A stretch of DNA of 64,000 nt. Origin: Amphiscolops sp. MND2022 (Eukaryota). How positions within the stretch are numbered: position 1 is the stretch's first letter; every line of letters begins with the position of its first letter. This document shows positions 10,685 to 62,868 of the stretch, piece by piece. The stretch covers positions 36,394,001 through 36,458,000 of the forward strand of contig OZ076420.1 of assembly GCA_964187785.1 (NCBI GenBank), in the 5' to 3' direction. A program made the translations under genes and the position numbers. The notes beneath the pieces are model-generated. The model made no database searches. It saw nothing but the letters and a program-made list of their open reading frames with translations, and was not told where the DNA came from.

Positions 10685-10697
10685 CTCTCTCTCTTTC

Positions 10698-31540: not shown

Positions 31541-31782
31541 TAAAAGAGTGATAGAATTCAGTTTCTATATCGCGTTTTAAAGAGAAAGCAATCGAATATT
31601 TTATTGTTCTCGTGAACCACTGCTGTCGTATTAAACCAGAAAACAATGATACACTATGAAGAGACTGCGAAACTAACAAAAGTTGTTCACTAACAGACAA
31701 ACAAATTGATGTTTCGAGCAAAATATTGAAGGTAGTATTTTGGTCGAAAACGGTATTTTAGTATTTTTACCAAAGGATCCGC
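31541..31782 (-). repeat. BEL/Pao 5' LTR (lacks the first ~67 bp of U3)
   Basis: Aligns to 4826-5081. Homology stops at GGATCCGC, where LINE sequence begins. Confidence 0.72.
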
Positions 31783-43200: not shown

Positions 43201-43263
43201 TTTGTTTGTCTTACTGCGATGCTGAGATTTGGGTTGTTGGGAAGCTCATACAATCTGTTGAAA

Positions 43264-43973
43264 TGTAACGTCCACCAGTCAATACCAAATTTTCGTTGAA
43301 AAATTCGTTCAAGAACCAAAAAAGGTGCGAATCAAAATGGCCGACCTGGCAGGTCCTTAAAGCCCATAAAAAAAAGAAAGAGAGAACGAGTGAACAAGAA
43401 GAATGACAGAAGAAGAAAAAGAAGTAGACGACTGACGACATGAAGATCCATGGGATAGAATTCAAAGAACGTTACCCGGTGCTGTGTCCTCCCTGGGAGA
43501 GCAGAGCCACTCCAGAACTACATGATCGGATCCCCGAGAACCCACAAACAGTAACTCCATTCCCACTCGGGGCTTATCCCCTTGATTTTGTTGATTTATG
43601 TCAATGTATTTTGCTATTTTTCCCATGCCTGACCTTCTAGGTCGGCATTTCATGCCCATGACTGTTGAAATGACAATTTTCGGATAAACACACTTTTGGA
43701 CCTCGGAAGTATGTAGGAGATGGCAGGAACGCGCTAAAACCTTAGGATACGTTTTTACAGGCTTGTGGGGCGTGTCCGGACTTTGAAAGTGCCGGCGCGT
43801 TGCCTCGGAGCTCTAATTAGAGGAGTCTCCTTAGACGTTAGAAAAGTCCCCCATGGAGACCATTTTGGGATGAAAAACTAGTGTCTAGGTATGTAGTAAG
43901 ACAACGGTCTCCTGTTTAAGCATCCTAGGCATTATCCCTCTTCCTAGATGTGCGCCGCTAGCCGGACGTTACA
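43264..43973 (+). repeat. Gypsy-2 5' LTR
   Basis: TGTAACGTCC...GGACGTTACA (10-bp terminal inverted repeat). Matches 61598-62307 except 43787 A vs 62121 G, by eye. Confidence 0.96.
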
Positions 43974-43989
43974 TCTGGAATAGTTTTTA

Positions 43990-44006
43990 TGGCGACCACA
44001 GAGGGA
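43990..44006 (+). other. Gypsy-2 primer-binding site, likely tRNA-Arg(UCG)-like
   Basis: TGGCGACCACAGAGGGA, 16 nt downstream of the LTR. Resembles the complement of metazoan tRNA-Arg(UCG) 3' ends. Confidence 0.65.
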
Positions 44007-46938
44007 TATTTTTCCTAACCGCGTCCTGCGAGGAGCAACTCCTGCTTTCCGGCCCTGAAAGGTCCGGATCTAGGAGAAGCTTTTAGGAGAGTCCTAGATT
44101 GTTTTTATTGCTTTGTTCTAGCCCTTTGGGCCTCGTATTAGTGTTTTTCCTGCGTTTCCTGCATGTTTCCGAGGTTCCCAGCCTGAAAAAGACAGTTTGA
44201 AACAGTGTACCCCCTTGTGCCTTATCTGTACTCATTAAAAAAGCTATTCCGGCTTATCCGGAACGTGTTTTAACGGGTTTTCCAGCTTCTTTTCAGCTAA
44301 TTAGCAATGTACAGGGACTGCGAGGACGATTGGTGAAGACCCGAACTAGCTGAGTGCAGGGCTGCAGGTGCTTCACGTCATAGCCTCTTCCTCCCCACTT
44401 GATGCCAATTCACCGAAGATAGCTGGGTTATTTCGTTCCCCTTACGTTTTCTAGCCCCAAATTAGTATTCCCAGGCCTGTTTTTGCATAAATTAACTGTG
44501 AATAATACCCACAGGGTATTTACATCAGTTATTTTAAGGACTTGAGCTCGAAAACGCCAAAAAAGACAGTAAAAACAGCTCAAATATCGAAATTTCCCGT
44601 TTTGAAAGCCAAAATTTTATAGAACTGTCTACGGCCTGAGGGAATACCTGAAAAACGTTCTATCGGACCTACCAGGTCGAGAACAAATAATTTTGTTGGG
44701 CTGTTTTTCTAGAAAACCTGAAAATTTCAGCAATTTTTGTTCAAAAATAGGCAAAATTGGCCATTTTGACCAATTTTGACGAGGGCGAAGCCTTGGGTGT
44801 TTGCTCCCAAGCCTCTTGAAAGGCCCAAAATTTTTGTTGTTGTGCTTGGTAGTACGCAATACTACTACCAAGACGGTTTTTGAACATCCCCAATATAAAT
44901 TGAAGTTTTAACATCACTTTTCTTTCATTAAAATAAACCTGAGTAGAGGACCCCATAGACCTGAGAGCTATAACATCAAAAATAATAATTGAAAGAACCC
45001 CACTCCCCTAAATAAAGCAGTTACACCTTCCTACTGTACCGTTGAAACCACCTTTAACCTCTGGGAACCGAAGAATAACAAGTTCCTAGGGAAAATACGT
45101 GTTTTTCATAGGTGTTCCCAGAGTGTCCAAGGTGTGACCTAAAACCAATATTGAGAGACCCTAGCTGGAACCTGCCAGGTTTCGCTCGCCTACTTTCTGT
45201 TAGTAGAGAGTACTAGATTACCAACGCCGAAAACCGCGAGTGATTCCAACCAGTGGTTACCGAGAAATAGCCAAAAACGTGTTATTTTTGTGACATTTTC
45301 GGAACACCAGAGTAGTGCTTCCAGTACAGGTCGAAATCTCTCCTAGCAGGAGTAGCCCAAAACGGATTGCACCATCGTGTAGACCATAAAAAGTTACGTT
45401 AGTGGTGTAATTTTCATAGCGCTACCATTACTAGTGATTGAGAAATCTTAGCCGCAGTTTTGCTCAAAAATGATCCGAAAATGTCGAAAAAATTGAATTT
45501 TAGTTGAGCATAGTGCTACACCTTGCGGGTATCCCAGCACTAAAATTCTTGCATTTTCGTATATACGGCGCTAGATCCCGACGATTTGTACATTTTGAGC
45601 AGCTTGCTACTGTCCAACTTGGAGAAATTGACAATTTTGTGAGTTTTAGCCCCTGAAAGTGACATACAGGGTACATCATAGTTTTGTCGACTCGGATTGC
45701 GAAATATTGACCTGGGCACCCCGCTAACTCATTTTTCTGTTACGTGGGCGTAATTCACGCTCGCATACAAAATTTCAGGTAGCTAGGACGCCTAGAAGGC
45801 GAGTTTAACCAATTTTTGCGAAATCCGCGACATAGCCAATTTCTCAGTGAACATTGTTAAGTGGCCGTGACACACGCAGAATCAATTTTAACGCAATCGG
45901 AAGCTCATTCCCCACGATTCAGCTAGTGTACTAGACGGTGTGAAATTTTCAGGTCGCTAGCACCACTAGAAGTGATTTTCGTCTTCCCCGGAGGTACTAC
46001 TTGATGAGAATAACGAGATTTTGAGAAAAAATTAATAGAAAACCCGAGCATTCCCAATCCTGACACACCCCATTCAAGGCTGGAGTCATCTATTTAACGC
46101 ATTGAGCAAGTCCCACACGCCTTACCGAACCTATAAAATCCATGTAAAGTTAGCCCCAAAATCAACGATCTTCCACTAAGCCCTCCACGAGATCAAAAGA
46201 AAGTAAACTCCAAAATTCGAAATTCGTTTCTTCCCCGCCGCTAAGCTCGCCTAGGTGGAATCTATTCGCCATAACCACCTTAAACCTACGCCTCGCATAC
46301 CCTGAGGGTACTAGAGTACGCCTGAGAATATCGAAACAATCACAAACCAGGTTTACGCAACGCGCAGAGAAACTAGAACGAGCACAGGGAAGATCACTCG
46401 CATCATTGTAACCCCTTCACCCACGACCCAAAAAGCCATAAACCAGGTCATCACTCGATACTCAACCCACTTGTTCCCAATCAAAGCCCAGATCATTCCC
46501 AGTCCATTGTCCACCCATTGTCCCGGAATCAGCCCACCCATTGTTTTCAGCCTCATCAAAAAAAAAAAAAAATTTTTTTTGAAGGAAGTCAAACCTTCTA
46601 GGTGAGAAGAAAGTAGAGGTAACTTTAGTTAACCAAACCAGCGGTAGTGTACTTAGTGCACTCCACGAAAGTAAGAAGCAGTTCAAGCCCATTTAGCAAA
46701 CCTTTACCCCAATTCGAGAAAAACGAGTGACAGAGCGCGCTAAACGGCCTAGTCAGTCAGCTGTTCAGTGCAGTTTAGATAACAGCCTTTTGAGTTATTT
46801 AGTAGAAGCAAACCCTCCTCTTTCCTTCACCTGCCATTTGTTTTGTGGGGGGGAAGGAAGTAGAGAAAAGCCAAAAAAAAAAAAAAAAATTTTTTGTTAT
46901 CTTTGATTTTATCAACTAAAACATTACATTTAGTGGCC

Positions 46939-49900
46939 ATGGAACGACGCGAGACTAACGCCATCATTAGCGACTTCCATGCCACCAACCCTTTCGGAAG
47001 AAGAACGGAAACCACAACCGAACAAAACGAATGTAGATTAGATTCAGCCATAGCAGCCGTAATTTCAGAAGCTATGTCTGACTTCGTACCGAGCCAGGAA
47101 CAAAACGCGGAAATAGCCGCTGCCAATACCCAGCCCAACTCCTCGCGAGCCTCCCCCGATAGCACCAATCTACCGGATGATGCTGAGAACAACACGCAAA
47201 GAGACACACGGCCTCCGCTGGAAGTCACTGACTACAGCTTGGAAAACTGGCCAAACTCCAACCAAGGGCCCATCAGTGAGCTCAGCATTGTTGGTACCGC
47301 CAACGAACAAAATGACACTCCGCGGGCGGACCCAAGGATGGCACAAGTCGAAAGGAACCCCCTGGGTTCCCAAGAGATGATCAATAGCATAGGCGGAAAT
47401 CCCTTCCGAAGCGGATATGCGCTATCGGAAGCACCGACCAAAACGTCGAACGGACCAGCGGAAAACTCGAAGACGAACATAACCGAGAATCCGTTAAGAT
47501 ATGTTTTTCGAACGCCACCCTCGGTGACACCAAAAATCAACTATGCGAATGCGAGTCGAACGTCTCACACACCAGACTCTCAAACTAGCGCCGACACCAA
47601 TCTCGACTCAACAATAACCAAAGCGAGAAAGGAAGTGCAAACGGTTCGAGAAGACTTTCAGAGTAGTCTGGCGCAATTAGCTCAAGTCCAGACGAGGCTG
47701 GCGAGAGAAAACAACGAACATGAGATGCGCGCCGACATGATAATGAGGGACATGGACGAGCTACGAAAAGGTCTGTTGGAAATGCAAGCGGAAGGGCGAC
47801 AAAATCAAGGTCGACTGGAAGCGTCAATGGCATCTCTCAATGATCTGATTAAACAGAGAGAAACTACAGCGGACGCTCGCATGGCCGAGATGTCTGCAAT
47901 AATGAGAGAAAGGGACCGCCAAGCAGATGAGCGCATGAAAGCAATGACCAACACGATGCAGCGTCGCGACATAGACTCCAATGTCCGCATGGCGGACTTG
48001 ATGATGGCAATGCAAGATCTGACATTGGGAGTGAAAGCAATCGTGTCGCAAACCCCCGCGCAGCAAGCACAAACGGCGCCGCGGATTCCCCAAAAATATC
48101 AACAGACCGAAATACCATCTACAAGCGAAGCTCCCCAACCTCATTATAGAACGGTGGCACAACACACAGTAGAACCTCCTAGGCCTCCAAAACTAATGCC
48201 ACCCGCAACGTACAGGCGTGACCTGTCTAAAGCTAACAAGATGGCTAAAGTGACCCACACGGAATCACGAGACGCAGGTACGGATCCAATGACTGACCCG
48301 CCGTCGCTCGACCAGTACGCTCGCGGAACATCGACCTCCGACGATTTTTATTCCGCCGCCGACGAGACGAACGCCCGCAGGACCAGCTACTACACGGCCG
48401 ATTCAAGCGCAGCATTCCGCCCACCTGCGCGAACGCAAACGTTCAGAGACTTCGTTCCGCGGCCAGTGGCCACCAGTACGCAGCGCAAAATGACAAACAA
48501 GCGGAATTTAGAACAAGGCAAAGGCGAACACAGCGACATCGAAGAAATGCCCTCAATAGCAGAAGAGACTCCAGACACGCCGAGAACTACCCAACGACAA
48601 GCACTGGCGGAAGCAATATCTACGGCCATGTCTAAAGGCTTAGAGCCGTTGCTCGCCGCCAAGGAATCCAAAAACAAGCCCACGAAATACAGAGGAACCC
48701 GAGACGGAAACGCAGATGGATGGATGATGTTAATGAAACGCCATTTGGAAAAGGCACACCCTAAGGCAACCCCCCTCGATAAGGCGTGGACAATAATCGA
48801 GTATCTAGAGCATGAAGCCAGGGATTACATCACGAATAAGTCCGAAGCAGAGAGGGACACTGACGAAAAAGTATTCGCATTATTAGCGCGTCGCTTCGGG
48901 ACAGGTTCCAGCAAAATCCACATCCAACAGCAATTTAGAACCCGCAACCAGAATAGCGATGAAGACTACATGCAATACCTTGATGCCCTCGAAGGCCTGC
49001 GTAGTCAAGGTTACCCCAATGAAGAGGTGACAGTTCGTCGATACGAAATCATGCAAAGATTCATTGAGGGAGTACGCAACTTCGAACTAAAAAGAAACCT
49101 CGCGCTAATGTATGCACCGGAACAATACGTGGAAACCCCGCCAACTGTGGAAGCCCTCCGCTTCACAGTGCAACAATACTTACGCATGCGAGGCTCGACC
49201 CGTTCGGACAACTACCCAATGATGCCTCCTCCACAACAACAAGCCAATATCCAACAACCAAATCAGTCCCCAGTAGCACCCACGCCTGCCCAAAAAGTGC
49301 CACAACAACAGCCTCCTCAACCAGCAGCATACCAACAACAACCAATGCCACCGGCAGCCTATCGACCGCAACCCCAAAGAGCGTGCTTCAACTGCGGAGA
49401 CCCATCGCATTTTGTGGTAGACTGCCCCCTGAAAGACCGTGCACGGAAGCCAGTACAACAGCAGGTGAACTCCTGTCACACGAACCCGACGGGTAGTTGG
49501 ATGTGCCCCTCCCAGCCACACGGCTTAAACTATGATGTGTTCCCAGCATCCCTACCAACCCAAGGCACTGTTGCCTTTTGCATTAATTGCGGCCGTACTG
49601 AACACTCGGCGTCAGAATGCATGGCCTCGGAACAGATGGGTCACGAAGAACAAATCCGTGCAGCTTGGTATGCTCCTTCACCAAGTCAATTCGATGGCCT
49701 GAGTCAAGACGACCAAGTCCGGGTAATATCAGTAGCGGAAGACGGAGGTCCCTCCCGACCTGTAGTAGTCACTTGTGGCGAGAAACAAGTACTCACCACA
49801 CTAGAGGCACCCGCCCCAGATTGCACAGAGACACTTATCTCAATACACTTGCTACTCTCGGCCGAACAGAAAACGCGACCCACGCTGACGCTCTCGCAAC

Positions 49901-52900
49901 TAAAGGAAGAATTATGCAGAAACGTGAAGTATACCATCGCAGCCCGACCGCTCCCACATTTTGCGCGAGAAGACGAAACGAAACTGGCCCCAATACAGAA
50001 AGTTAAAACCGTTTCTCCGGTGCCGGTAGCCATTAACGTAGACGGTGTAGACATGAAATTTGATGCTATTGTAGTCTTAGAAGGCCACTTCCCTCAGGGA
50101 TTGTATTTGGGCCGCCAGGAGTTACGATGTTATAACATCGGAGTGCAAGATGCCCAGGGGGAGGCTCGTATTGACGAAAGGGCATCCCTGGTGGTTGCCT
50201 TTGGCAACACTATCCAGGAACCAATACCCTTGTACGGGATGATAGACACCGGTTCCGGTGTCTCCATTCTCTCCCTCAAAGCCTATCAAAAAATTGCATC
50301 ACCCCACGCCTTGAGCCTCCTACCGTATGACATCCAACTGTATGCCGCCAACGGTAAAACCATCAACACCATTGGAATCGCCGAAAATGTTAGCTTCCAG
50401 TTGGGCGGATACACCCTCCGAACCAATTTCATAGTCATTGCCGATCACCTAGGCGCGGAAGACTTCCTACTTGGCAGAAACTTCTTGCGCACCTACAATG
50501 TTCTCGTGGACCTGACGGCCATGAGGGTCACTATACGAGACCCCAAAGCGCCACGCCACTTCAAACCCGTCCATGAGGTAAGTGATCATGAGCCATCCCT
50601 AGTGATATCCACCGAAAAAGTAGTTCTAGGCCCCTATGAGCGTAGGCTAGTACGAGCCCAAATCATTTCTCAAAAGCACAACGAGTACCTTTTCCGAAAC
50701 GTAATGATTCGCCCCCAGGGGACATCTAAACGATCCCCCTTTGTTTCAGAAGATACATTGACGTCTGTTGGAGATGAAGGCATTGTCTTCATAGCCCTAC
50801 GAAACACTACCCCCTCTGAAAACGTAACCATTCAAACCAAAACTGTCCTCGGTAAGGCAGAAACTACAAAATTTGTGTTGCAACCTGTGGCTGCCGACAC
50901 GGCAACCGAAGTTGATAAATCTTTGTTTGAACAAGTTAATAAAGTTTATACCGAAGAGTGGTTAAACGAAACGAGTTCAGAATATAGTTCTTTTGCTCAA
51001 AACTTCTTGTCCTCTACTGAGATGTCTGAAGAAGGATTATCGGAAAGCGAAAAGCGTGCTAAGACTGACCCACAATTGCTAAAACCTATACCAGGTCCAG
51101 ACCTTTCTTCCGTCCTTTCTTCGTGGGGGGAGGGAGCGAGAGATCAACTAGCAAGCGTTCTGAGCGAGTACGATGACCTTTTTATGAAACATAAAGCCGA
51201 CATAGGGAGGTGCAAAATAGCAAAACACCGCATAGAACTAGAGCCGGAAGCTATCCCGCATAGAGAAGGCGCTCGGCGCATGTCCCCGGATAAGGCAGCA
51301 AAGGCTAATCAAGAGGTACGGAATCTACTGGCCCTTGGCCTAATTCAACCCTCCTATTCACCGTGGGCAAGCGGAATAGTCATGGTCAAAAAGAAAACAG
51401 GCGAACTTCGCTTCTGTTGTGACTTTCGACCGCTCAATGACGTAACGGTCAAGGACGCATTCCCATTGCCCAGGATTGATGAAAGTCTATCCCGGATAGG
51501 CAATGCGAAAATCTTCACAAGTATCGACCTAGCGTGGGCCTTCTGGCAGATACCGCTAAAGAAGCGCGATAGAAGGAAAACAGCATTTGCCTGTGAACTG
51601 GGATTGTTCGAATGGCGGCGCATGCCCTTTGGGCTATGCAATGCATCGGCCACATTTCAGCGCTCTATTACACGGGCCCTGCAACGGATCCAGCAGCGAC
51701 ACGGGAGTGTCGTCATGGCTTACATTGACGACATAGTTATCGCCACGGAAACCATAGAAGACCACATCGTACGAATCAAGGAAGTATTCGAATGTCTCCG
51801 AGAGGCTGGATTCAAGATGCGCGCCGAGAAGTGTGATTTCATGCGCACGGAGACGAAGTACCTGGGGCGAGTGGTATCCTCGGAGGGCATCAGACCAGAC
51901 CCCGAAGCTATAGTTAAAATCCAAGAATGGATGCCCCCGAGAAACAAAGAGGAGCTTCAGAGCTTCCTGGGGTTTGCAAACTATTACAGGGACTTTGTAC
52001 CGTTTCATGCAGCCAAAGTGCAACCCCTGCAAGAGTTGCTCAAGAAAAGTCAGCATTTCCACTGGGAAACGAAACACCAAGAAGCCTTCGATGCAGTAAA
52101 GGAAGCACTGGCAAACGCGACCGCCTTGGCAGCCCCAAATGAAGACGGACGATTCGTGCTCGATACTGATGCTAGCGCAGTAGCGATAGCTGGAATCCTG
52201 CACCAGGAACAAGAACACAATGGGAAGACTATTTTGCGGCCAATAGTCTTCGGGAGCAAATCCCTGACGAAGACACAGCTAAACTATGGAGCACCCAAGT
52301 TGGAAATGTACGCAGTATTTTACTTCATCGAGAAATTCCATTCATATCTCGCAGGCCGAGAGTTCACGCTCCGTGTGGACAATCAGGCCCTGTCATGGCT
52401 TAAAACGTACTCCATGGACCAAGCCATGATAGGTCGCTGGATAGCCCGTCTAGATCAATACAACTTCAAGACGATCCACCGACCTCGCACACAGCATCGA
52501 AACGTAGACGGCCTCAGCAAACGAACCAACGACTACGTGCACCGGGAGAAAATCCTCGAGAAGTTACCGGAAGTGAGTGAAGGATTCAACTTCATGACCA
52601 AAGAAGACTATGAAGCGCTCCCCACCGTACCATACTTCGACAAACACGGACGCCCAATACCAAACCACCCAGAGCTCCCGCCGGAAGCTCGAGCCCAACT
52701 CCCACTGCTGTATATCTTGGGAAAAAGACCCAAAACGAGCCTGCAAGAGCCCCCGGTGAATGGTGCCCCATGGTATCCTCAAGTACAGTGGGAGGCGACA
52801 CCTACCACAGATGAGGATCACCGACCCACTCACATCCTCAGCATCACGACCAAAGTGCCACCGGCACGCCTAGACACTGAAAAACCTGATCCTGTGCTTG

Positions 52901-55900
52901 AAGAGATGCCACCCGAATGCCAAACACAAGCCAACGCCCTTAGAACAGTTGGGACAGAGCTGCATGAACACTTTTTGACTAGACGTGGCCTCAAAGACCT
53001 GCACCTAGCACAAAATAGGGACGTACACCTCCTAGCGTTGAGGAAACTCATGAAAGGCGAACCACTGGAGGAAACGATGTTCCCCGACGACGTACAGGAC
53101 TTCGCACGACGCTACTTCCATCAAAAGAAAGACCTGCTCTTCCTGAACCCAGACGACATTCTCTGCGTCAACTACGTTCCGCAACAACGTGCGCTGCACG
53201 TGCGACCGTGTATGATAGTCATGCCACAACTATACCAGCACGAGATTCTGTATAGGGCACACGACGAATCGGGACATCAGGGCGTAGGGAAGGTGCTAGC
53301 GAGAGTACAAGAACGGCACACCTGGCCGGGCATCAAGCGTGACATAGTCAATCACATCAAGCACTGCTTGACCTGCCAGCAAACAAAACACCCCGCCGGG
53401 AACCCCTGCTACCCCTTGCAGAACATCAACAGTAGCAATTTCAACGACCTAGTACAATTCGACCACCTCAAACTTTGCAAAACCGACTCGGGAAACACCG
53501 GTCTCTTAGTCATGATAGACCACTTCACGAAATTTGCCGAGGCCATTCCATGTGCCCACGACGAATATGATGCCCAAACCACAGCTAAAATCATCCTTAA
53601 CAAATGGTTTGCCAGGCACGGCACCCCAGCACGGATGCAATCCGACAATGCCACGAATTTCACAGCTGAAATCGCACAGGAGCTAATGAAAGCCTCGCAA
53701 GTCACTAAAGTGACATCCACTCCAGCGCATCCTCGAGGGAATGGACTCGTGGAAAGGCAGAACCGAACGTTACTCACACTGCTGAGAGTCTACACTTCTC
53801 GACGAATGCAGGATTGGGATGAGCATATTGATGGAATCCTCGGTGCGTACAATTCAACTAGACACGCAACCACTGGATTCTCTCCCTATATGCTCCAACA
53901 CGGAGCCGAGAAATCAATTCCCCTGTCATTCATCTACCCAGAATTTGCTGCCCGAGGATTCGATTCCAAAGAAGAATTCGTAGAACATCTTCTAGCCAGA
54001 CAGCAAGAAATCCATGAACTCGTCAGAAGAAATACACACCAAGCACAGCTACGCCAGAAGCTGAAGTTTGACCGCCACCTGAAGGCCAAAGCGCATGCTG
54101 TAGGCGATGCGGTGTGGGTGTTCTGCCATATCATACCCAAGGGTGGCACCCGCAAGCTGATTCGCGCATGGCGCGGACCCCACAAGGTAACCGACGTGTT
54201 GCAGGACGGACGATTATACGTACTAGACACTGGCCAAAAGGTCCACTACGAAAGATTGAAAAAGCATGTGCCTGCCCCTTGGGACTGGGCCGCACACCAG
54301 CCCTTTGGGCCGAATCAAAACGTAGCCATTATTGCTGATCCGTACGTAGAAGAAAGCAATGAAGAGATAGCGTCCGACATCTCCCAAGACTCTTTCCTAC
54401 CGGAACAACTTCCGGAAGCATCCTTCGAAATGGAACCGACAGGATCGATTCCACCTCGTACCATTCAGACTCGTACCCAAACGGCACTCGAACAAGGAAT
54501 ACCCAGAAGAAGATTCAGCCACTTCGGGTACCCCTCCAACTCAGATTCCGAAACAGAGGAAAATGAACCACCGATTCAGAGCCCACCACCGCCAGTAGTG
54601 TTCCCCGACTTAGACGACCTGGAACCACTGTACTCCGACCAGGAGGAAATTCAGCCGGCCGTACCTACAAGTCTGATACCATCACCCTCAGGGACCTCAG
54701 CCCCCCTACTATCCAATCCGTCCCTAACAGACACCCTGAGTAACTTTCCCTTGTTTGGCCCCCAACTAGAGAACCCGATCGACCCGATAGAAAATAAACC
54801 AAAGTCAGAAACTGAGAATGAGGAAGAGACAACCCATCGCAGTCCAAGCCATTGCTCAACGCAACCCAATACCACGAATAGTAGAGGACGGCCTCGAGGC
54901 CGACCACCGGGTAGAGGAAAATCCCGCGCTATACCATCTACTAGAACCACAACATCGTCACGAACCCAAACCGCACGACCCAGAAGAGGCCCCAGAGCAA
55001 GAACGAGCACTCGTGCACCCCCTCGAAAACTAGACCGAGCGATGACTCTACCAGAAATACCCGAAAGCCAACAACCACCAGATGTCCAGGATTCAGAACC
55101 AAGACCATCATCGCGAACATCACGATATCAACTGCGAGCTAACAGAGCACCACGTTACAAGTGTGGAACCTGTGGTTCCCGCAACTGTAGTTGCGTCAAG
55201 CATCTGACTCGCCAGTCACCGGACGACCGATTGGCCCGGGGAGCAGTAGTCCCTGCCAGGGATCTCTTTATGGCTAGGACACATTGTCACCCACAACATG
55301 AGATCTTAGCCGTGCAAGCCCAACGAGAAAAGGTGGAGACACCCCCGCTAGTGCACCATTTGGTCATCACGGTAGAAAAAACTTTCACCAGTGTGGAACG
55401 AGAAGCGATACCACCACTGGAAGAAACACTCAAAGCGATGCACGCGACATCTCCCTCTGACTGCCCGACTTACCGATTCAAAGAATGGACACTTCCCCAT
55501 CGGGGCGGTCTAGAATTCACCCTACATGCCATCATACCACCTTTGCCACCATCGATGACGTTCGGCGAGCTAGCAAAAGAGGATAGTAGCCCGGAGATGA
55601 TTCGCTGTATCACTGCACACCAACTGTGGGAGAAATATCACATTGCCTCCCCGCCGGGAGACATATATCAGCCCACCAATGGATGGTGGCTACTTGTCAC
55701 CTCTCTAGACGCAACGACATTGGTATCTCCAACAACTTTACTGATGTGCTTAGAAAGTTTACGTACGGTAACCGAACCTGAGAACACGCTTTGTTTCCAC
55801 ATGGCCGATATTTATCGTGGCAAGTTCCTAAGCCAACACTGGCTACAGTTAATAGCGGTAGTCTTTTGCCGGCAGGCGAAGATACACTTCCTGGATCGAC

Positions 55901-56598
55901 AATCTTATACACCAGAAAAACCCGTGACAATTAGCGAAGCACTCTCAATAGTACACGATTGGTCATCTACAAACTTGGGAGATAGACCTCTACGACGAAC
56001 CGTCTGGGAAGACCGAAAAGCAATCTTGCAGCATTTGACACCCCGACCCACCGATGATCAGAGCAGAACCACCGGCAAATGGCTCATAACCCAGCCTAAA
56101 ACCAGACCGAATTACTTACCTTGGATAAGCTATGACGACACAGATATCCTGCAGGCACCTGGCACCGTAATATTATGCTGCCCTGCGGATTTGTTCTCTT
56201 ACTCGGCTACGATCCGTTACGTCATTCGCGAATACGGTCAAGAAAACATATTTCGTCTAAGACCATCAGTTGGCACCGCAATTCGTTTAACCCGCTCGCC
56301 AACTGCACCCTGGAATAACGAAATCTTCCTTCTGTGTACCAGAGCATCAAACAAGCATCCGCTCTTACATGAGGTATTACATGCGTGTTTGACGAATTTG
56401 ATAACTCAACTCCATCGAAACCACATTACCAGAATCCACTTGCCCATCTATGATCCTGAGCGATCGATGAACCTCCTCCCAGCCTGGTACGCCACCCTAC
56501 GCGACCACTTTGCAGATCACAACATAACAATAGTCTTGCACGATCGCGTCTATGTCACAATAGCGTCGATTACCTCTGCCAACTTTGGCGGTAGTTAA
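46939..56598 (+). CDS. pol: Gag-Pol polyprotein (~3,219 aa from the ATG) with C-terminal macrodomain-like extension
   Basis: gccATGg at 46939 (the track starts at an upstream TTG). CCHC knuckles at 49384 and 49579; PR IDTGSG at 50245; RT YIDD at 51721; RH DTDAS, VDNQAL; IN HHCC (HDESGH...CLTC), FDH, SDNATNF, NGLVER. About 800-aa tail after IN. Confidence 0.96.
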   Translation: MERRETNAIISDFHATNPFGRRTETTTEQNECRLDSAIAAVISEAMSDFVPSQEQNAEIAAANTQPNSSRASPDSTNLPDDAENNTQRDTRPPLEVTDYSLENWPNSNQGPISELSIVGTANEQNDTPRADPRMAQVERNPLGSQEMINSIGGNPFRSGYALSEAPTKTSNGPAENSKTNITENPLRYVFRTPPSVTPKINYANASRTSHTPDSQTSADTNLDSTITKARKEVQTVREDFQSSLAQLAQVQTRLARENNEHEMRADMIMRDMDELRKGLLEMQAEGRQNQGRLEASMASLNDLIKQRETTADARMAEMSAIMRERDRQADERMKAMTNTMQRRDIDSNVRMADLMMAMQDLTLGVKAIVSQTPAQQAQTAPRIPQKYQQTEIPSTSEAPQPHYRTVAQHTVEPPRPPKLMPPATYRRDLSKANKMAKVTHTESRDAGTDPMTDPPSLDQYARGTSTSDDFYSAADETNARRTSYYTADSSAAFRPPARTQTFRDFVPRPVATSTQRKMTNKRNLEQGKGEHSDIEEMPSIAEETPDTPRTTQRQALAEAISTAMSKGLEPLLAAKESKNKPTKYRGTRDGNADGWMMLMKRHLEKAHPKATPLDKAWTIIEYLEHEARDYITNKSEAERDTDEKVFALLARRFGTGSSKIHIQQQFRTRNQNSDEDYMQYLDALEGLRSQGYPNEEVTVRRYEIMQRFIEGVRNFELKRNLALMYAPEQYVETPPTVEALRFTVQQYLRMRGSTRSDNYPMMPPPQQQANIQQPNQSPVAPTPAQKVPQQQPPQPAAYQQQPMPPAAYRPQPQRACFNCGDPSHFVVDCPLKDRARKPVQQQVNSCHTNPTGSWMCPSQPHGLNYDVFPASLPTQGTVAFCINCGRTEHSASECMASEQMGHEEQIRAAWYAPSPSQFDGLSQDDQVRVISVAEDGGPSRPVVVTCGEKQVLTTLEAPAPDCTETLISIHLLLSAEQKTRPTLTLSQLKEELCRNVKYTIAARPLPHFAREDETKLAPIQKVKTVSPVPVAINVDGVDMKFDAIVVLEGHFPQGLYLGRQELRCYNIGVQDAQGEARIDERASLVVAFGNTIQEPIPLYGMIDTGSGVSILSLKAYQKIASPHALSLLPYDIQLYAANGKTINTIGIAENVSFQLGGYTLRTNFIVIADHLGAEDFLLGRNFLRTYNVLVDLTAMRVTIRDPKAPRHFKPVHEVSDHEPSLVISTEKVVLGPYERRLVRAQIISQKHNEYLFRNVMIRPQGTSKRSPFVSEDTLTSVGDEGIVFIALRNTTPSENVTIQTKTVLGKAETTKFVLQPVAADTATEVDKSLFEQVNKVYTEEWLNETSSEYSSFAQNFLSSTEMSEEGLSESEKRAKTDPQLLKPIPGPDLSSVLSSWGEGARDQLASVLSEYDDLFMKHKADIGRCKIAKHRIELEPEAIPHREGARRMSPDKAAKANQEVRNLLALGLIQPSYSPWASGIVMVKKKTGELRFCCDFRPLNDVTVKDAFPLPRIDESLSRIGNAKIFTSIDLAWAFWQIPLKKRDRRKTAFACELGLFEWRRMPFGLCNASATFQRSITRALQRIQQRHGSVVMAYIDDIVIATETIEDHIVRIKEVFECLREAGFKMRAEKCDFMRTETKYLGRVVSSEGIRPDPEAIVKIQEWMPPRNKEELQSFLGFANYYRDFVPFHAAKVQPLQELLKKSQHFHWETKHQEAFDAVKEALANATALAAPNEDGRFVLDTDASAVAIAGILHQEQEHNGKTILRPIVFGSKSLTKTQLNYGAPKLEMYAVFYFIEKFHSYLAGREFTLRVDNQALSWLKTYSMDQAMIGRWIARLDQYNFKTIHRPRTQHRNVDGLSKRTNDYVHREKILEKLPEVSEGFNFMTKEDYEALPTVPYFDKHGRPIPNHPELPPEARAQLPLLYILGKRPKTSLQEPPVNGAPWYPQVQWEATPTTDEDHRPTHILSITTKVPPARLDTEKPDPVLEEMPPECQTQANALRTVGTELHEHFLTRRGLKDLHLAQNRDVHLLALRKLMKGEPLEETMFPDDVQDFARRYFHQKKDLLFLNPDDILCVNYVPQQRALHVRPCMIVMPQLYQHEILYRAHDESGHQGVGKVLARVQERHTWPGIKRDIVNHIKHCLTCQQTKHPAGNPCYPLQNINSSNFNDLVQFDHLKLCKTDSGNTGLLVMIDHFTKFAEAIPCAHDEYDAQTTAKIILNKWFARHGTPARMQSDNATNFTAEIAQELMKASQVTKVTSTPAHPRGNGLVERQNRTLLTLLRVYTSRRMQDWDEHIDGILGAYNSTRHATTGFSPYMLQHGAEKSIPLSFIYPEFAARGFDSKEEFVEHLLARQQEIHELVRRNTHQAQLRQKLKFDRHLKAKAHAVGDAVWVFCHIIPKGGTRKLIRAWRGPHKVTDVLQDGRLYVLDTGQKVHYERLKKHVPAPWDWAAHQPFGPNQNVAIIADPYVEESNEEIASDISQDSFLPEQLPEASFEMEPTGSIPPRTIQTRTQTALEQGIPRRRFSHFGYPSNSDSETEENEPPIQSPPPPVVFPDLDDLEPLYSDQEEIQPAVPTSLIPSPSGTSAPLLSNPSLTDTLSNFPLFGPQLENPIDPIENKPKSETENEEETTHRSPSHCSTQPNTTNSRGRPRGRPPGRGKSRAIPSTRTTTSSRTQTARPRRGPRARTSTRAPPRKLDRAMTLPEIPESQQPPDVQDSEPRPSSRTSRYQLRANRAPRYKCGTCGSRNCSCVKHLTRQSPDDRLARGAVVPARDLFMARTHCHPQHEILAVQAQREKVETPPLVHHLVITVEKTFTSVEREAIPPLEETLKAMHATSPSDCPTYRFKEWTLPHRGGLEFTLHAIIPPLPPSMTFGELAKEDSSPEMIRCITAHQLWEKYHIASPPGDIYQPTNGWWLLVTSLDATTLVSPTTLLMCLESLRTVTEPENTLCFHMADIYRGKFLSQHWLQLIAVVFCRQAKIHFLDRQSYTPEKPVTISEALSIVHDWSSTNLGDRPLRRTVWEDRKAILQHLTPRPTDDQSRTTGKWLITQPKTRPNYLPWISYDDTDILQAPGTVILCCPADLFSYSATIRYVIREYGQENIFRLRPSVGTAIRLTRSPTAPWNNEIFLLCTRASNKHPLLHEVLHACLTNLITQLHRNHITRIHLPIYDPERSMNLLPAWYATLRDHFADHNITIVLHDRVYVTIASITSANFGGS

Positions 56599-56928
56599 GA
56601 GCACGTCTCGCCCTCTACTTGGCATATCAGGCCACTGGCCTTTTGCACTGCCTGTAGTTGATTCGAAGCACTTTAAAATTTTAACAAAACCGCGCCGACA
56701 AGCGCAAATTTTAATACTAACCACTGTAACTTTTTAACCTTATGTTTGTGTGTTCGTCCTAAAGAGCTTAACTGCCCACCCGTCTATGTGATGTCTTATC
56801 TCCAACTGTGACCTGTTTTTCAGTTTTGTCCTGTTGCCTCGCCTCTGCGCGGCCCCCATACTTATCACGCCAAATCAGTCTTGCCATCACAATCTTCGGT
56901 GCTAAACATCCCTTTATTATCGTTTCCA

Positions 56929-59900
56929 ATGGACCCATCTGCGCGACACCGCCTGCCTGCACCCCAGAACGCTGCGCGTGCCCAACCATCCACTAGGAAC
57001 GACCCACCTCCAATGATGAGCGAGATAGATGGTCGAGTCGACCAGCTAGCCCTCGTCCAAGACACCCTTCTAAACGGAGCGACACCTACAATGATTACTG
57101 GCTTTGCCATGATCATCGCCCAAACCCAAGCTCAAGCTGAGTACCCTGATATTAGCTTCACTATCACCAGCCGAGTCGGCCCGATAGAACGCTCCGCCAC
57201 TTTTCGCGACGGCACCTGGCAAGGGTATGACTTGACCCATAGCCTCATAGACCCTCGCTCTCACGTAGTCTATGGAGAACCTACCAGGCCTCCCATGGAT
57301 CAAGAACGATCACTCCGTATTTCACAGTCAGCACTACAGACATTACAGACGCAAACTACGACCCCGTTGCCCTCACCGCACCCGGTGCAGTTCAGCTGCA
57401 CTTTGCCAATCGTGCCACCCCCAGTACTAACACCGCCCATGCCCCTGGCATCGGAAGGCATTCGCCTACTGACCACCCCATCCTCTACCTTCATGCCTCC
57501 ATCTACCTTTCAGGGGGGAGGGGTGCAAGTAGACAATACAGCAAGTGCTACCCTGAGCGAAGAACAGCCCAGGAGAACGGTGACGTTCAAAGATTCATAT
57601 GAAGAATTAACTCAGACGTCTTCCAGAACCGAATCTCAAGTCTCGGAACCTCCACAAGCCTCAGAACCAGCTAGCCTAGTAGGCTTCCAAATGGACCCAC
57701 AATTCCGAGAACGTCAGCGAGAACAACAAAAAGCAGAAAGTAAGGCAGCCAACACTGTGGTAGACCTCCGGGAGAAAATAAAAGCTGGAAAGCGAGCCAG
57801 AGAGGCGATCATGCAAAGCAAACAATCGAGCTCGACCAGTGCCCCGCAACCCTTGTCTGCCTCACCTACGCAACCAGAAACAAGGAGACCGAGAATAACA
57901 CACGAACTCCTAACACATTCGGAAAAACGGCAGCTGGATATCACTGCACGCGACGCACTGCGTCTGCAGCGGGAAATACCAACCACAACGCCACCAGAAG
58001 ACCCTCTACGACAGAAATTCGAGACCGCAACGGGAACTGGGGACTACGCCACAAGGCAGAAAATAGAAAAAGCCACAGTGGGAGTACTCTACAATCGTCC
58101 CGTCAAGAAACCAGTGTTCACTCAAGATGGATGCCCCCCATGGTTCAATCGCATGCGAGCAGAATTGGAGAGAGTGAACTCGACATACATGCGTATTCCT
58201 GACAACTTCCTCCGACAGCGCCCTGGCCGCTTCGACGAAGACCGCTTGCGAACAAAAAACTATGCGAGGGACCCCATTACAATCCTGCCCATGGGAAAGG
58301 ATCTCTTGCAGAAAACCAGAATAGCCTTCTTCGTCGACTCGACGATGAAGTCTTCATTCAACTCTCACAACACCCTTATGGATGTCAGAATAATGAACAT
58401 GCCCTGTACAACACTGAACGAAATGGCAGAAGTGACCGACAAAGTATTCACCCAAGCGGGAACAGAGACCATCCCATTACCTCCGTTGCTGGTATATTCA
58501 AATGTTATAGATCACCTCGCTTTGCGAGGGACCTTGGAATTTTTCCGACCAGACCACGAAAGATTTACTGAGGGGTTCGTCACCGACGAAGTGACCAACT
58601 ACGTGGAGACAATGGCGAATATTGCCCAAACTATGCGCAGAAGGAAAGCTGTCACTGGAACGGTATTTATGTCGCCTCCAGGCTACATGCACCTTCCTCG
58701 GACCCTTCAGCAATTCTTATACCTAGTAATGGAGGCAGCGTACGCAAGAGATCTGGCCTTTTACATTGTGGCCCCCAATTTACGCATCAGCAATAATAGC
58801 TGGCGCCCTTGTGAAGCCTCTTACCCAGCCTTCATTGCTGAAGTCTCAAAGGCCCTTCAATCATACGTCGGTTACCGTGGAAACTCCCAAATGGTAGTGG
58901 ATGAAGCAGCAGCATTCGACTACGGGATGGAAATGGCTCGCCGATCATTGAATGAACGTGGAGACAGAATCGTAAACGACCCAAACGAAAGTGAGCGCAA
59001 TAACCTGGTGGATAACCTCTGGTTTGAACGCCGGGACGAGTCAACTGTAGACGAAAAAACACACGAACCCAAGTTTCACAAGGAACTCACAAAGCTAATG
59101 AAAGAAACCGAGACGGTTCTGGGTGATAGAAAGAATTCCTCCATCTTCCCCATGGCTCAAATATCATTAGATGCTGAACCTGGGCAAAGATCGCCGACAT
59201 TGGCCATGCTGTTGATACTGGCTCGAGACGTTATACAAAAGAATATTCAAGAGCCGACACACACGTACCAAACATGGCACGATCAACTACGAGAACCTTT
59301 GGGCCAAGTCGCGGACCGACTGGGTATAACATTTCCCGTATTTCTCCACAACATCTCTCCCTTCTGGCTTCCTTCCTTAGTACAAGCCGAGTACGGCCTA
59401 GATGAGCAGCGAATGCGACTCTACATGGAGGCCATGGAAAGAGCGACCGTTAGTGAACTACTAGCGTACCTGATGGCCGTGGGGTTAACCATGATGTACA
59501 GAGGACCATCGGCCCTCATACAAAAGTTCGTGCTCAACAAGGGAGGCTCAGCCCTGTTCAGCTTCCTAGTCTTCTCGCAGAATCAAAGAGGTTGGATATC
59601 TGCGCTCATTGAAACCCTAGACCCAGCGGGTTCCTTGAAATTAAAGACGCAGCTGGACTTAAACGTTCAAGCACTGCTAGTGTGGATTTATTCCACCTGG
59701 GTCAATGTCTCGGGCGTTATGCATCCTCTGGATGAGTGCCCAGCTATTAACCGAGACCCCAATCAACTTCCTGGGTTCCTGTTCCCTACACAAGTTGCAA
59801 CACTAATGCTCGTAGAAACAGAGGACCTAATGCCCCTCATTGCTCCGATAGTCTGGCCCATCTTCGGCGCAGTCATGGCCCTACGCTATCCAACGCAAAC

Positions 59901-61023
59901 CCTGCGAGTGGCAGCAGTGAGCCCTTCCCTCTCGATTCTACATTTCGTGACCTCTGATGGGCCCCTTCAGGGTCCCACCTATCAATCAGTGATACACAGC
60001 TTTGCCAACTTGCGACCTCCCTTGGCGTATACCGTAATCAAAGACCGCCAACAAGTGGAACACAACTATCTCTCCTTGATCAAGGCGAGAGCACGTAGCT
60101 CGCTCCCTTTGCCGATGGAAATCCATCCTGTAGTTTGGCTGCACACCCCTATTGATCCAAATAATGGAGCAGTGGCGACATTCGAAGGGTGGGACGTGCC
60201 AGTTGTCCTGCGTATCTTGAGAACAATTATCCAAAGATTGGGTGGTCGTCGAAAAGGAGAAGAACCTACTAGGTTATTGTATCCCTATGCGTGTGACACT
60301 TCCAGAATATATTGTGCGAGGACAGAGCCCCGCGAGCACACCGCCAGAATCTTGAATACCATTACGTGTTGGGCCCAGCCGGAGCTCGTGGACCTCGCTA
60401 TACACCAGACCTTCCAACAGCTGCCGACAACTATTCCGACAGTAGCCAAGGAACCAAGCAAGAAAGATTTGCCCGTGAACACTGACGTTCCCAGCAATCC
60501 GCGTATGGCACTAGAGATATTCGTGCGCCTGCATGGTCTCCAACGAGAACGTACTCGAGCAGTGGGCGAAGAGTACGCTAGGGGAATACGAACGTTCAGG
60601 CAGCTGTTCATCCAATATGGCCACCAAGAATTAGCGGACGGTTTGCCGAACTTGGAATCACTCGAAGCTATCCCGGGAATTAGCGATTTGAGCGAAGCTG
60701 CCTCTGGCAGCTCTCGCACCGCCTTCCCCACACCCCACGTGAGTCAAGACTCCAATGAAATATTGGTGGAAAGAGCACAAGATGATGTGCCAGACGTCAT
60801 GCCACCATCAGGGGAACCTATGACTGGTAATAACTTCACGTTCTCTGACGCCACCACTCCTGTAAGAGATGAAGTGGAAACCAATATCTCGAACTTGGAG
60901 GCAGCGGACATAGAGTCAGAGCTCAATAATCTGCTGACAATAGACGAAGAGTATCAGAACACAGTGGATGCCATGGGCAACACCTCAGTCCAAGAAACCC
61001 CACAGGATCAACTGCTGGAATAA
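56929..61023 (+). CDS. Accessory ORF2 in env position (~1,364 aa) with SGNH-hydrolase-like domain
   Basis: First ATG at 56929 (the track starts at TTG 56881); no stops. P/T/S/Q-rich N-terminus, charged coiled coil, SGNH-like blocks at ~58321-58860, hydrophobic helices at ~59450-59890, acidic tail. Confidence 0.88.
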   Translation: MDPSARHRLPAPQNAARAQPSTRNDPPPMMSEIDGRVDQLALVQDTLLNGATPTMITGFAMIIAQTQAQAEYPDISFTITSRVGPIERSATFRDGTWQGYDLTHSLIDPRSHVVYGEPTRPPMDQERSLRISQSALQTLQTQTTTPLPSPHPVQFSCTLPIVPPPVLTPPMPLASEGIRLLTTPSSTFMPPSTFQGGGVQVDNTASATLSEEQPRRTVTFKDSYEELTQTSSRTESQVSEPPQASEPASLVGFQMDPQFRERQREQQKAESKAANTVVDLREKIKAGKRAREAIMQSKQSSSTSAPQPLSASPTQPETRRPRITHELLTHSEKRQLDITARDALRLQREIPTTTPPEDPLRQKFETATGTGDYATRQKIEKATVGVLYNRPVKKPVFTQDGCPPWFNRMRAELERVNSTYMRIPDNFLRQRPGRFDEDRLRTKNYARDPITILPMGKDLLQKTRIAFFVDSTMKSSFNSHNTLMDVRIMNMPCTTLNEMAEVTDKVFTQAGTETIPLPPLLVYSNVIDHLALRGTLEFFRPDHERFTEGFVTDEVTNYVETMANIAQTMRRRKAVTGTVFMSPPGYMHLPRTLQQFLYLVMEAAYARDLAFYIVAPNLRISNNSWRPCEASYPAFIAEVSKALQSYVGYRGNSQMVVDEAAAFDYGMEMARRSLNERGDRIVNDPNESERNNLVDNLWFERRDESTVDEKTHEPKFHKELTKLMKETETVLGDRKNSSIFPMAQISLDAEPGQRSPTLAMLLILARDVIQKNIQEPTHTYQTWHDQLREPLGQVADRLGITFPVFLHNISPFWLPSLVQAEYGLDEQRMRLYMEAMERATVSELLAYLMAVGLTMMYRGPSALIQKFVLNKGGSALFSFLVFSQNQRGWISALIETLDPAGSLKLKTQLDLNVQALLVWIYSTWVNVSGVMHPLDECPAINRDPNQLPGFLFPTQVATLMLVETEDLMPLIAPIVWPIFGAVMALRYPTQTLRVAAVSPSLSILHFVTSDGPLQGPTYQSVIHSFANLRPPLAYTVIKDRQQVEHNYLSLIKARARSSLPLPMEIHPVVWLHTPIDPNNGAVATFEGWDVPVVLRILRTIIQRLGGRRKGEEPTRLLYPYACDTSRIYCARTEPREHTARILNTITCWAQPELVDLAIHQTFQQLPTTIPTVAKEPSKKDLPVNTDVPSNPRMALEIFVRLHGLQRERTRAVGEEYARGIRTFRQLFIQYGHQELADGLPNLESLEAIPGISDLSEAASGSSRTAFPTPHVSQDSNEILVERAQDDVPDVMPPSGEPMTGNNFTFSDATTPVRDEVETNISNLEAADIESELNNLLTIDEEYQNTVDAMGNTSVQETPQDQLLE

Positions 61024-61583
61024 AGGAGTCCTCTGGACCCTCAAGACTGTTAGAACATAATTGAGCATAAAGGACCCTGTCGTCAATATATTAATGCCAA
61101 TTCTTGTGCTATACCATCTTACTGGTGCTGAAAACTTTCAGTGCAATAAACCTTAATTCCTGAGTTTTGTTTGATGTATATTATACTTTGCTACCATTGT
61201 AACAATGCAATATAGTTACATCCTCTGGGTGGGTCCCGGCTCGGTGCCCTCCCGTTTTGATTTGAATTGGAAACTTCTACCAAGCCCAAAAGTTGTTATT
61301 ACTCATCTGGCCGCGCAGGGGCCCTATTTTAGAAAAAGAAATTTTAACTTGAACTGAGTAGTTAGTGAAAAAACCTTTTAAAGAAAGAATCCGACTGCAA
61401 AATTTTTAATTTAAAAATCAGTGCTTTTTGAATTCGATGGCTTTAAGGTGCTAGACATGTAGTAGTGAGGCGAAAAGAATAATAGTGTGATATCAACGTA
61501 TCTTTGACATAAGACCTTTTCTGTGGACCTCAGAGTACCCTTTGGGTGCGAGCATCCTCTCGTTTGCCGAGGACGACAAACTA

Positions 61584-61597
61584 CGGCCCGGGGAGGA
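61584..61597 (+). other. Gypsy-2 polypurine tract
   Basis: ...CGGCCCGGGAGGA immediately before the 3' LTR TG. Confidence 0.7.
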
Positions 61598-62307
61598 TGT
61601 AACGTCCACCAGTCAATACCAAATTTTCGTTGAAAAATTCGTTCAAGAACCAAAAAAGGTGCGAATCAAAATGGCCGACCTGGCAGGTCCTTAAAGCCCA
61701 TAAAAAAAAGAAAGAGAGAACGAGTGAACAAGAAGAATGACAGAAGAAGAAAAAGAAGTAGACGACTGACGACATGAAGATCCATGGGATAGAATTCAAA
61801 GAACGTTACCCGGTGCTGTGTCCTCCCTGGGAGAGCAGAGCCACTCCAGAACTACATGATCGGATCCCCGAGAACCCACAAACAGTAACTCCATTCCCAC
61901 TCGGGGCTTATCCCCTTGATTTTGTTGATTTATGTCAATGTATTTTGCTATTTTTCCCATGCCTGACCTTCTAGGTCGGCATTTCATGCCCATGACTGTT
62001 GAAATGACAATTTTCGGATAAACACACTTTTGGACCTCGGAAGTATGTAGGAGATGGCAGGAACGCGCTAAAACCTTAGGATACGTTTTTACAGGCTTGT
62101 GGGGCGTGTCCGGACTTTGAGAGTGCCGGCGCGTTGCCTCGGAGCTCTAATTAGAGGAGTCTCCTTAGACGTTAGAAAAGTCCCCCATGGAGACCATTTT
62201 GGGATGAAAAACTAGTGTCTAGGTATGTAGTAAGACAACGGTCTCCTGTTTAAGCATCCTAGGCATTATCCCTCTTCCTAGATGTGCGCCGCTAGCCGGA
62301 CGTTACA
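61598..62307 (+). repeat. Gypsy-2 3' LTR
   Basis: Offset 18334 from the 5' LTR; same termini. Confidence 0.96.
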
Positions 62308-62321
62308 AAATGTGTGCATTG

Positions 62322-62868
62322 TAGGCATCCGATGTTTTTCTATTCTTTTTTATTTTTTTTTCTAAACAAGCAACTCTTTATCTGTGAGAAAATTTTAAAG
62401 TATAATTGATGTGTGTATTGATACTGAAGTAAACTGTTCTCAATCCATGTTTTGTCGTATGCCAATGTTAATTTAATATAAATTATCATAATTAGTTTTC
62501 ATCGCAAAAGTTCATCGTGGGGATTTTTCCCTCCAGATGCCTGATTCTAACCAAAGGAACCATAACTAGTTACGATAATTCATTTTTAATTAGCATTGGA
62601 ATACGGAAAAAATTAAATGGGAACAATTTCATTCAGAATCGATACACAAATCAATTATACTCTAAAATTTTCTCAGATATTAAAGAAATGATTGGTAATT
62701 ACCAATCTGTGAGGAAAATTATACTCTAAAATTTTCTCAGATATTAAAGAAATGATTGGTAATTACCAATCTGTGAGGAAAATTATACTCTAAAATTTTC
62801 TCAGATATTAAAGAAATGATTGGTAATTACCAATCTCTTAAGAGGAAAACTGAAAAATCGGATGCCTA
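62322..62868. mobile_element. MITE-like element with TA-flanked inverted ends and an internal tandem array
   Basis: TAGGCATCCGAT(G)TTTTTC at 62322 vs GAAAAATCGGATGCCTA at 62852-62868. The terminal TA is compatible with a Tc1/mariner-type TSD. Confidence 0.5.
62653..62836. repeat. 64-bp tandem repeat, 2.9 identical copies, each with an 18-bp palindrome
   Basis: Units start at 62653, 62717 and 62781; each contains GATTGGTAATTACCAATC. Confidence 0.92.

Follow-up and report, generated by a model that had tools for sequence, protein, structure and literature searches.

A recently inserted Ty3/Gypsy retrotransposon with a protease-like repeat, a predicted macrodomain and an SGNH-fold domain in Amphiscolops sp. 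MND2022

What does a Ty3/Gypsy element do with accessory modules that resemble enzymes, and do these modules still act as enzymes? The question is raised by a locus in a 64,000-nt stretch of the Amphiscolops sp. MND2022 assembly GCA_964187785.1 (contig OZ076420.1, positions 36,394,001 to 36,458,000), hereafter the window; coordinates below are those of the window and all features lie on the + strand. The element occupies 43264..62307 (19,044 bp, of which 17,624 bp are internal) between two 710-bp direct LTRs, at 43264..43973 (TGTAAC...GTTACA) and 61598..62307, which differ at a single site (43787), a divergence of 0.14% (95% CI 0.004–0.78%). A PBS-like sequence beginning TGG (TGGCGACC..., 43990..44007) lies 16 nt 3' of the 5' LTR, and a polypurine tract (GGGGAGGA, 61590..61597) abuts the 3' LTR. 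We take the former to resemble the 3' end of tRNA-Arg; no tRNA gene was found within the 64-kb window, and an Rfam search of 43000–62500 gave no useful match. The interior carries two ORFs without internal stops: ORF1 (46939..56598; 3,219 aa counted from its initial Met), which runs from Gag to the end of Pol in one frame, and ORF2 (56929..61023; 1,364 aa). The preliminary description of a young, open-frame Gypsy element of this length, with one LTR mismatch in 710 bp, a leader of about 2.96 kb, a single-frame Gag-Pol of about 3,220 aa, a second ORF of about 1,360 aa and no stops or frameshifts, was therefore borne out. Its word 'giant' was an overstatement, given an internal region of 17.6 kb against the >20-kb criterion in the available text of PMC6431247, a length of >30 kb for Burro and 21.1 kb for another Gypsy element in the window.

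The core of ORF1 follows the Ty3/Gypsy order. A Gag capsid region (48661..49218; weak Pfam PNMA match, E = 0.007; 85% identical in the sister subfamily) is followed by two CCHC zinc knuckles (49384..49620; two Pfam zf-CCHC stretches), a canonical DTG retropepsin, PR2 (50185..50544; Pfam gag-asp_proteas, E = 5e-6), a YIDD reverse transcriptase core (51385..51867; Pfam RVT_1, E = 6e-36), RNase H (52063..52512; Pfam RT_RNaseH and RT_RNaseH_2, motifs present) and an integrase with HHCC, DDE core and GPY/F-like motifs (53224..54200; Pfam Integrase_H2C2 and rve). The closest PDB relative of the reverse transcriptase was that of Ty3 (E = 1e-33), followed by another reverse transcriptase (1e-19) and foamy-virus Pol (1e-9). 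Between PR2 and the reverse transcriptase lies a spacer domain (50581..50898) matched by one unnamed PHROG (E = 0.002), the only useful match when seven segments were searched against NCBIfam and PHROGs. No dUTPase match to the spacer was obtained in Pfam, NCBIfam, PHROGs or a PDB profile search; our guess is a possible dUTPase-like remnant. With TG...CA LTRs, PBS, polypurine tract, PR-RT-RH-IN order with catalytic motifs and a Ty3-type reverse transcriptase as nearest relative, the element is a Ty3/Gypsy LTR retrotransposon, recently inserted and most likely autonomous and env-less.

The element is potentially active in transposition, although this particular copy need not be competent. Its flanks read GAAA/LTR and LTR/AAAT (AAAT directly follows the 3' LTR), so the direct repeat is just the 3-bp AAA (chance ~2%), where Ty3/Gypsy elements have target-site duplications of 4–6 bp. 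A clean duplication, of 5 bp, flanks the other Gypsy element in the window. In view of these lengths, the copy could be a recombinant, a false join made in assembly between two near-identical insertions, or an insertion that lost one junction base. The doubt about competence stems from the lack of a clean duplication together with the residue position adjoining the last RNase H aspartate, which differs from 60/64 relatives.

The architecture is shared widely. The matches listed comprised at least 174 Pol-type relatives, and ORF2 had 11; all were ENA proteins without a family name. The reverse transcriptase tree consisted of such Pol-type proteins and the window's other Gypsy element. Among cluster representatives, ORF2 had 358 relatives. 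CCHC, DTG and YIDD motifs together with a terminal macrodomain were present in 40/54 relatives, which supports the layout as a lineage trait. A search for ORF2 relatives in prokaryotic genomes gave 40 pattern matches, none of them confirmed. In the literature covered (most subscription journals, Repbase Reports and supplements fell outside it) we found no Gypsy LTR retrotransposon with a macrodomain and none with a doubled protease. The supplements of PMC13524379 or PMC9911081 could list elements of such a layout. Two acoel genome papers report genomes rich in LTR elements and, in their available text, describe no such element.

For the extra modules, we give an even chance to the reading that most of them descend from enzymes but now serve for binding or regulation without catalysis, carried by an autonomous env-less Gypsy of a large lineage. 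It seems unlikely that they still work as enzymes through rewired active sites. In that case the SGNH domain would use its serine with the block-III Asp-His, the macrodomain would hydrolyse ADP-ribose without the TARG1 lysine and so counter a host defence that ADP-ribosylates cDNA, RNA or particle proteins, and the two protease copies would be a single-chain pepsin-like enzyme to which the first gives the second aspartate. The residues of each module bear on this choice.

Directly upstream of PR2, whose D[TS]G is kept in 150/159 relatives, HMM comparison identified a conserved protease-like repeat, PR1 (49741..50154), which has no Pfam match. PR1–PR2 HMM cross-scores exceeded shuffled and reversed controls; hhalign gave P = 3.5e-4 with shallow profiles and 0.067 with deeper ones, and its global mode aligned neither this pair nor the M1/M2 pair of the Pol tail. 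The distance from motif to motif is ~26 residues greater in PR1. The doubled protease announced in the preliminary description thus has moderate support, weakened by the deeper profiles, and its first copy lacks the catalytic motif: a direct search found D[TS]G in 0/146 PR1 copies. An apparent D-S-G in 3/146 was an alignment artefact from an omitted inserted residue. Neither of the two nearest subfamilies has the glycine (0/86). PR1 is probably a pseudo-protease. In favour of a working pair, the aspartate is retained in 131/146 copies and reads D-P-x-G in 52/60 distant ones. A step of duplication and fusion was the origin of the pepsin-like enzymes.

The integrase tail begins with a basic GRP motif, which we label AT-hook-like, and a C-x2-C-x4-C-x-C cluster (54883..55194), found in 56/56 relatives of a set chosen by presence of the cluster. 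The conserved domain M1 (55468..55902; 69% identical in one subfamily and 46% in another) follows. The last domain, M2 (56116..56553), has a fold nearest TARG1/DarG, the ALC1-like class, in a low-confidence model (mean pLDDT of the tail 36) and an independent Atlas feature match; a PDB phmmer search with the tail gave no useful match. On this model, Pol ends in one TARG1-class macrodomain. M1, the candidate for a second one, aligned to M2 with hhalign at P = 0.013–0.014, but reversed sequences scored equally and pLDDT was <50 there, and M1 is for these reasons kept without a fold label; only the M2 part of the earlier 'macrodomain(s)' stands. M2 reads T-R in 51/51 relatives at the presumed equivalent of the catalytic lysine (TARG1 K84, DarG K80), where TARG1 has T-K, and this invariance would speak against hydrolysis. 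Activity would nevertheless have precedents, as SCO6735 hydrolyses without equivalents of TARG1 Lys84 or Asp125 (PMC9411070), and TARG1 and DarG strip ADP-ribose off DNA (PMC8501950).

ORF2 begins 105 nt 3' of a putative splice acceptor (TTTTTCAG, 56816..56823); the VFQF reading also occurs 5' of the Met in P0007, the sole relative with an upstream extension. Fold searches corroborated the SGNH fold proposed earlier (58246..58872), and the best Atlas match of this region (0.81) is a lead only. With blocks placed by motif on the alignment, the serine was retained in 20/21 relatives and the block-III Asp and His in 28/32 each, whereas the canonical block-V His was present in 1/36. Other residues stand in place of the glycines of blocks I and II (at block II, one of C, L, H, R and I in 30/30). 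Active SGNH hydrolases have invariant Ser, Gly, Asn and His in blocks I, II, III and V. Judged from these motifs, catalysis has probably been lost. An all-helical domain (59203..59715) was modelled confidently (pLDDT 72–95 per ten-residue block) and has no fold assigned. Pfam gave no useful match to ORF2 or its distant relatives, the best hit of a PDB profile search had E = 0.08, and the fold-search matches listed were taken up by the SGNH domain, so that they say little about a fusion-glycoprotein fold in the rest of ORF2.

It is improbable that ORF2 is a stand-in for env, a non-classical membrane protein by which particles of a virus-like element pass between cells, for example from soma to germline. 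Its position, the putative splice acceptor and one 19-residue window at KD 2.06 would suit such a role, and GDSL ORF3s have been proposed as an aid to membrane crossing (available text of PMC5408684 and PMC6431247). Against it, a hydropathy and motif scan found no hydrophobic N-terminus and no furin-type R-x-K/R-R site, in line with the earlier view that ORF2 is not env-like; ORF2 contains 8 Cys in 1,364 aa and ends in an acidic low-complexity segment without a membrane anchor. Very improbably, the modules are captured passengers in neutral decay and the copy an assembly chimera of near-identical insertions: catalytic motifs are degenerate in all three modules, the duplication is not clean and many relatives are fragments, but PR1 matches PR2 in conservation, ORF2 reaches 55–64% in its SGNH, helical and C-terminal parts versus 32–36% in the surrounding low-complexity segments, frames remain open across subfamilies 45–50% divergent, and a chimera of like copies would leave the architecture unchanged.

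If the modules are mostly non-catalytic units, the element might work as follows. The leader (43974..46938; 2,965 nt) is purged of sense-strand AUG: ATG occurs 8 times versus 31.3 expected and is the rarest of the 64 trinucleotides, a depletion equalled in 0/1000 Markov resamples (rank 15–38 in host control sequences); the eight uORFs are each ≤9 codons long and ORF1 starts in the context GCCATGG. Ribosomes would scan through it on the genomic RNA and make one Gag-Pol polyprotein without a frameshift. PR1, as a retropepsin-half fold, would pair with PR2 and keep it inactive until particle assembly, a hold that may substitute for the frameshift as a brake on early processing. The tail, from AT-hook-like motif to macrodomain, could anchor the integration complex on chromatin, the part played by the chromodomain in chromoviruses, and the macrodomain may bind or remove ADP-ribose. 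ORF2, from a spliced subgenomic RNA, would act in the cytoplasm as a pseudo-esterase scaffold and guide particles or RNA toward membranes or granules; this model follows the esterase-type ORF1p of the non-LTR element ZfL2-1, whose membrane binding is independent of its active site (available text of Schneider et al. 2013, PMC3905857).

As far as the available text of the sources extends, known systems share single features only in part. ZfL2-1 also encodes an SGNH fold, in a catalytically active LINE ORF1 with an intact triad, whereas the domain here lacks the His and belongs to the post-pol ORF of an LTR retrotransposon (PMC3905857). Vesta of bdelloids (Rodriguez et al. 2017, PMC5408684) is likewise Gypsy-like, with an SGNH-fold ORF after pol instead of env and near-identical LTRs; its GDSL ORFs (1.3-kb amplicons) keep S-G-N-H intact, in contrast to a domain without His inside a 4.1-kb ORF, and the elements described there have no doubled protease or macrodomain. 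A dUTPase between PR and RT is a mark of these GDSL-ORF3 elements; at that place the present element has the spacer domain, a dUTPase-like remnant at most by guess. The planarian Burro/GYPSM1 (Arkhipova and Yushenova 2019, PMC6431247) shares a very long single-frame Gag-Pol, accessory domains and high copy number, but its 4,873-aa ORF bears AIR1, SMC, MATH, BIR, ankyrin and BCL2 domains and an in-frame env, none of which Pfam found here. Fish epsilon-like ERVs have a macrodomain too, as a separate accessory ORF of env-bearing Retroviridae (PMC4977317, citing Basta et al. 2009), unlike the predicted TARG1/DarG-class domain fused behind a Gypsy integrase. Chromoviruses (bioRxiv 10.1101/2021.11.30.470311) offer a functional analogy, with a modification reader at the integrase C-terminus; it is a chromodomain, of which Pfam found none here. 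Env-bearing errantiviruses (Chary and Hayashi, PMC13524379) share a large separate ORF after pol, but no F-type or gB-type hallmarks were seen in ORF2, and the terms SGNH, esterase and ADP-ribos were absent from the available text.

A bolder form of the preferred reading, in which the lineage combines a tethered two-domain retropepsin, an integrase-linked ADP-ribose reader or eraser and an Oskar-like ~150-kDa pseudo-esterase, is unlikely; the same doubt covers, taken jointly, its two options for the duplicated half, gating the protease or completing it asymmetrically. If true, the ADP-ribose module would imply host restriction of LTR elements by ADP-ribosylation, or integration into ADP-ribosylated chromatin, and the pseudo-esterase would bring particles, with no envelope involved, to membranes or to the granules of the germ line. 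Should the family already be catalogued with the same layout, the element would be merely a good example of it. Otherwise this intact, high-copy lineage offers three accessory modules, each testable as an isolated domain, and its leader a natural example of very long-range scanning. The lineage bears on how elements with Gag-Pol in a single frame keep their protease from being activated too early, on whether ADP-ribosylation matters in host–retrotransposon conflict or target choice, and on the role of retroelement SGNH domains after loss of catalysis, a question open since the work in PMC5408684 and PMC3905857. The three degenerate enzyme-like modules hint at unstudied modes of maturation control and intracellular movement.

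The Ty3/Gypsy element occupies 43264–62307 on the forward strand, where the preliminary description had placed it. Its LTR pair with a single mismatch (710 bp each, 43264–43973 and 61598–62307), the long Gag-Pol frame (ORF1, open over 46939–56598, 3,219 aa) and the second, post-pol ORF (ORF2, open over 56929–61023, 1,364 aa) were all recovered as described. Assignment to Ty3/Gypsy is near certain. A PBS-like sequence begins 16 nt past the 5' LTR and an 8-nt PPT directly adjoins the 3' LTR. The LTR divergence (0.14%, 95% CI 0.004–0.78%) supports the young age originally proposed, but a normal target site duplication (TSD) is absent. Recent insertion therefore rests on LTR identity and not on the TSD, because the flanks share AAA only (chance ~2%), compared to a 5-bp target duplication at the other Gypsy element of the same window. 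The focal copy may represent a join of near-identical copies, or one base may have been lost. The term "giant" was not retained, as the element falls short of the size criterion of a review (PMC6431247). A foldback or MITE-like sequence starts 5 bp to the right of the 3' LTR (62313–62877); it has inverted arms and contains a 64-bp unit in 2.9 copies.

ATG was the most strongly depleted of all 64 trinucleotides on the sense strand of the leader (43974–46938), occurring 8 times versus 31.3 expected; the opposite strand carried 48. Equal scarcity was seen in 0/1000 resamples, and in four host control sequences ATG depletion ranked 15th to 38th. Every upstream ORF was ≤9 codons, and ORF1 starts in the context GCCATGG. 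Such a pattern would be expected of a 3-kb leader that stays unspliced and is scanned by ribosomes. An Rfam search returned no structured RNA. An A-run followed by a T-run occurs in two copies 315 bp apart (46557–46581 and 46872–46896), just upstream of the ORF1 start.

Within ORF1, the retropepsin PR2 (50185–50544, forward strand) is canonical, with D[TS]G in 150/159 sequences. The protease-like PR1 (49741–50154, forward strand) lies ~10 residues upstream, and resembles PR2 chiefly in the C-terminal strand and the G-x-x-L-G segment. HMM cross-scores exceeded the shuffled 99th percentile in 63/124 scored (128 given) and 104/129 sequences; reversed sequences and unrelated domains, used as controls, were negative. 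In profile–profile comparison, P was 3.5e−4 with shallow alignments but only 0.067 with deeper ones. Homology between the two halves of the doubled protease region noticed initially is likely, though not proven. D[TS]G occurred in 0/146 PR1 sequences. An Asp was kept in 131/146, and PR1 was conserved like PR2 (identities of 87–88% versus 78–80% and 49–50% versus 59–61% in two comparisons), consistent with a constrained pseudo-protease-like domain. Retropepsins work as dimers, and from this geometry we infer that PR1 pairs with PR2.

The element is part of a large lineage. ORF2 had 11 long relatives (55–99% identity), and the nearest cluster comprised 342 member sequences, possibly from several assemblies and so not a copy number. 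A wider search gave 358 representatives, reaching ~27% identity among the best 150. The Pol tail, an integrase tail ending in a macrodomain, had 54 relatives, 40 of which carried CCHC, DTG and YIDD and shared the terminal domain. Some invertebrate Gypsy polyproteins are annotated automatically with TARG1-like domains. The protease region had 141 relatives, the best 120 including a subfamily at ~50% identity, in which two clusters comprise 575 and 693 members. ORF2 appears linked to pol in relatives, because divergence tiers match and one database protein (P0136) unites gag and ORF2 sequence of a sister subfamily. No full-length Pol at least 90% identical occurred among the 54 tail matches, although the 342-member ORF2 cluster is 99% identical and partial Pols at 95–99% do occur (P0216, P0325); the database or the search may be limiting here. 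The ORF2 N-terminal segment (57031–57303, ~90 aa) is conserved, with 48–49% identity in a distant subfamily, and one ORF2 relative (P0003) has its entire C-terminal half duplicated internally, in frame.

The second Gypsy element (5244–26363, minus strand, 21.1 kb) has ~1.6-kb LTRs (95.6% identical), a Pol broken across several frames and an RT only 26% identical to the focal RT. It contains a 3.9-kb tandem duplication (6807–10684 and 10690–14598, 98%), repeat arrays of 32/64/96 bp and two antisense ORFs of ~500 codons (9474–10940 and 13388–14926), negative in a Pfam search. Its insertion target was apparently an older BEL/Pao element, with remains at 4826–5081, 26711–29275 and 31541–31782 (Peptidase_A17, E = 2e−17) between 256-bp direct repeats (86%). 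The 5' part of a LINE (1–2330, minus strand; endonuclease ORF and upstream ORF1-like frame) and short palindromic or inverted-repeat structures (37674–37782 and 4060–4580) were also present.

Several of these features are known one by one. SGNH ORF3s whose catalytic residues are intact are already described in bdelloid Vesta elements (PMC5408684). Fish ERVs carry macro-domain ORFs (PMC4977317), and planarians harbour Gypsy elements that are larger and multi-domain (PMC6431247, PMC11410931). Searches of published papers found neither the focal domain combination nor a Gypsy element in which the protease is doubled, and the accessible part of PMC2774666 held nothing usable for clade assignment. 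The accessible part of an env survey (PMC13524379) makes no mention of SGNH or ADP-ribose domains. That the cargo consists of active enzymes with rewired sites is doubtful. Use of ORF2 as an env substitute is improbable. Neutral passengers are the least probable reading.

Doubt concerns the functions of the cargo, not the element class. The reading we favour, with about even confidence, is an autonomous, env-less Gypsy element with mainly non-catalytic add-ons. PR1 would act as a brake, holding back PR2 within a polyprotein made without frameshifting, and the integrase tail would tether to chromatin or ADP-ribose, by analogy with chromodomains. ORF2, which would be made from a spliced message, may be a pseudo-esterase that serves membranes or RNP granules as a scaffold, on the model of ZfL2-1, which still binds liposomes when its active site is mutated, and of Oskar (PMC3905857).
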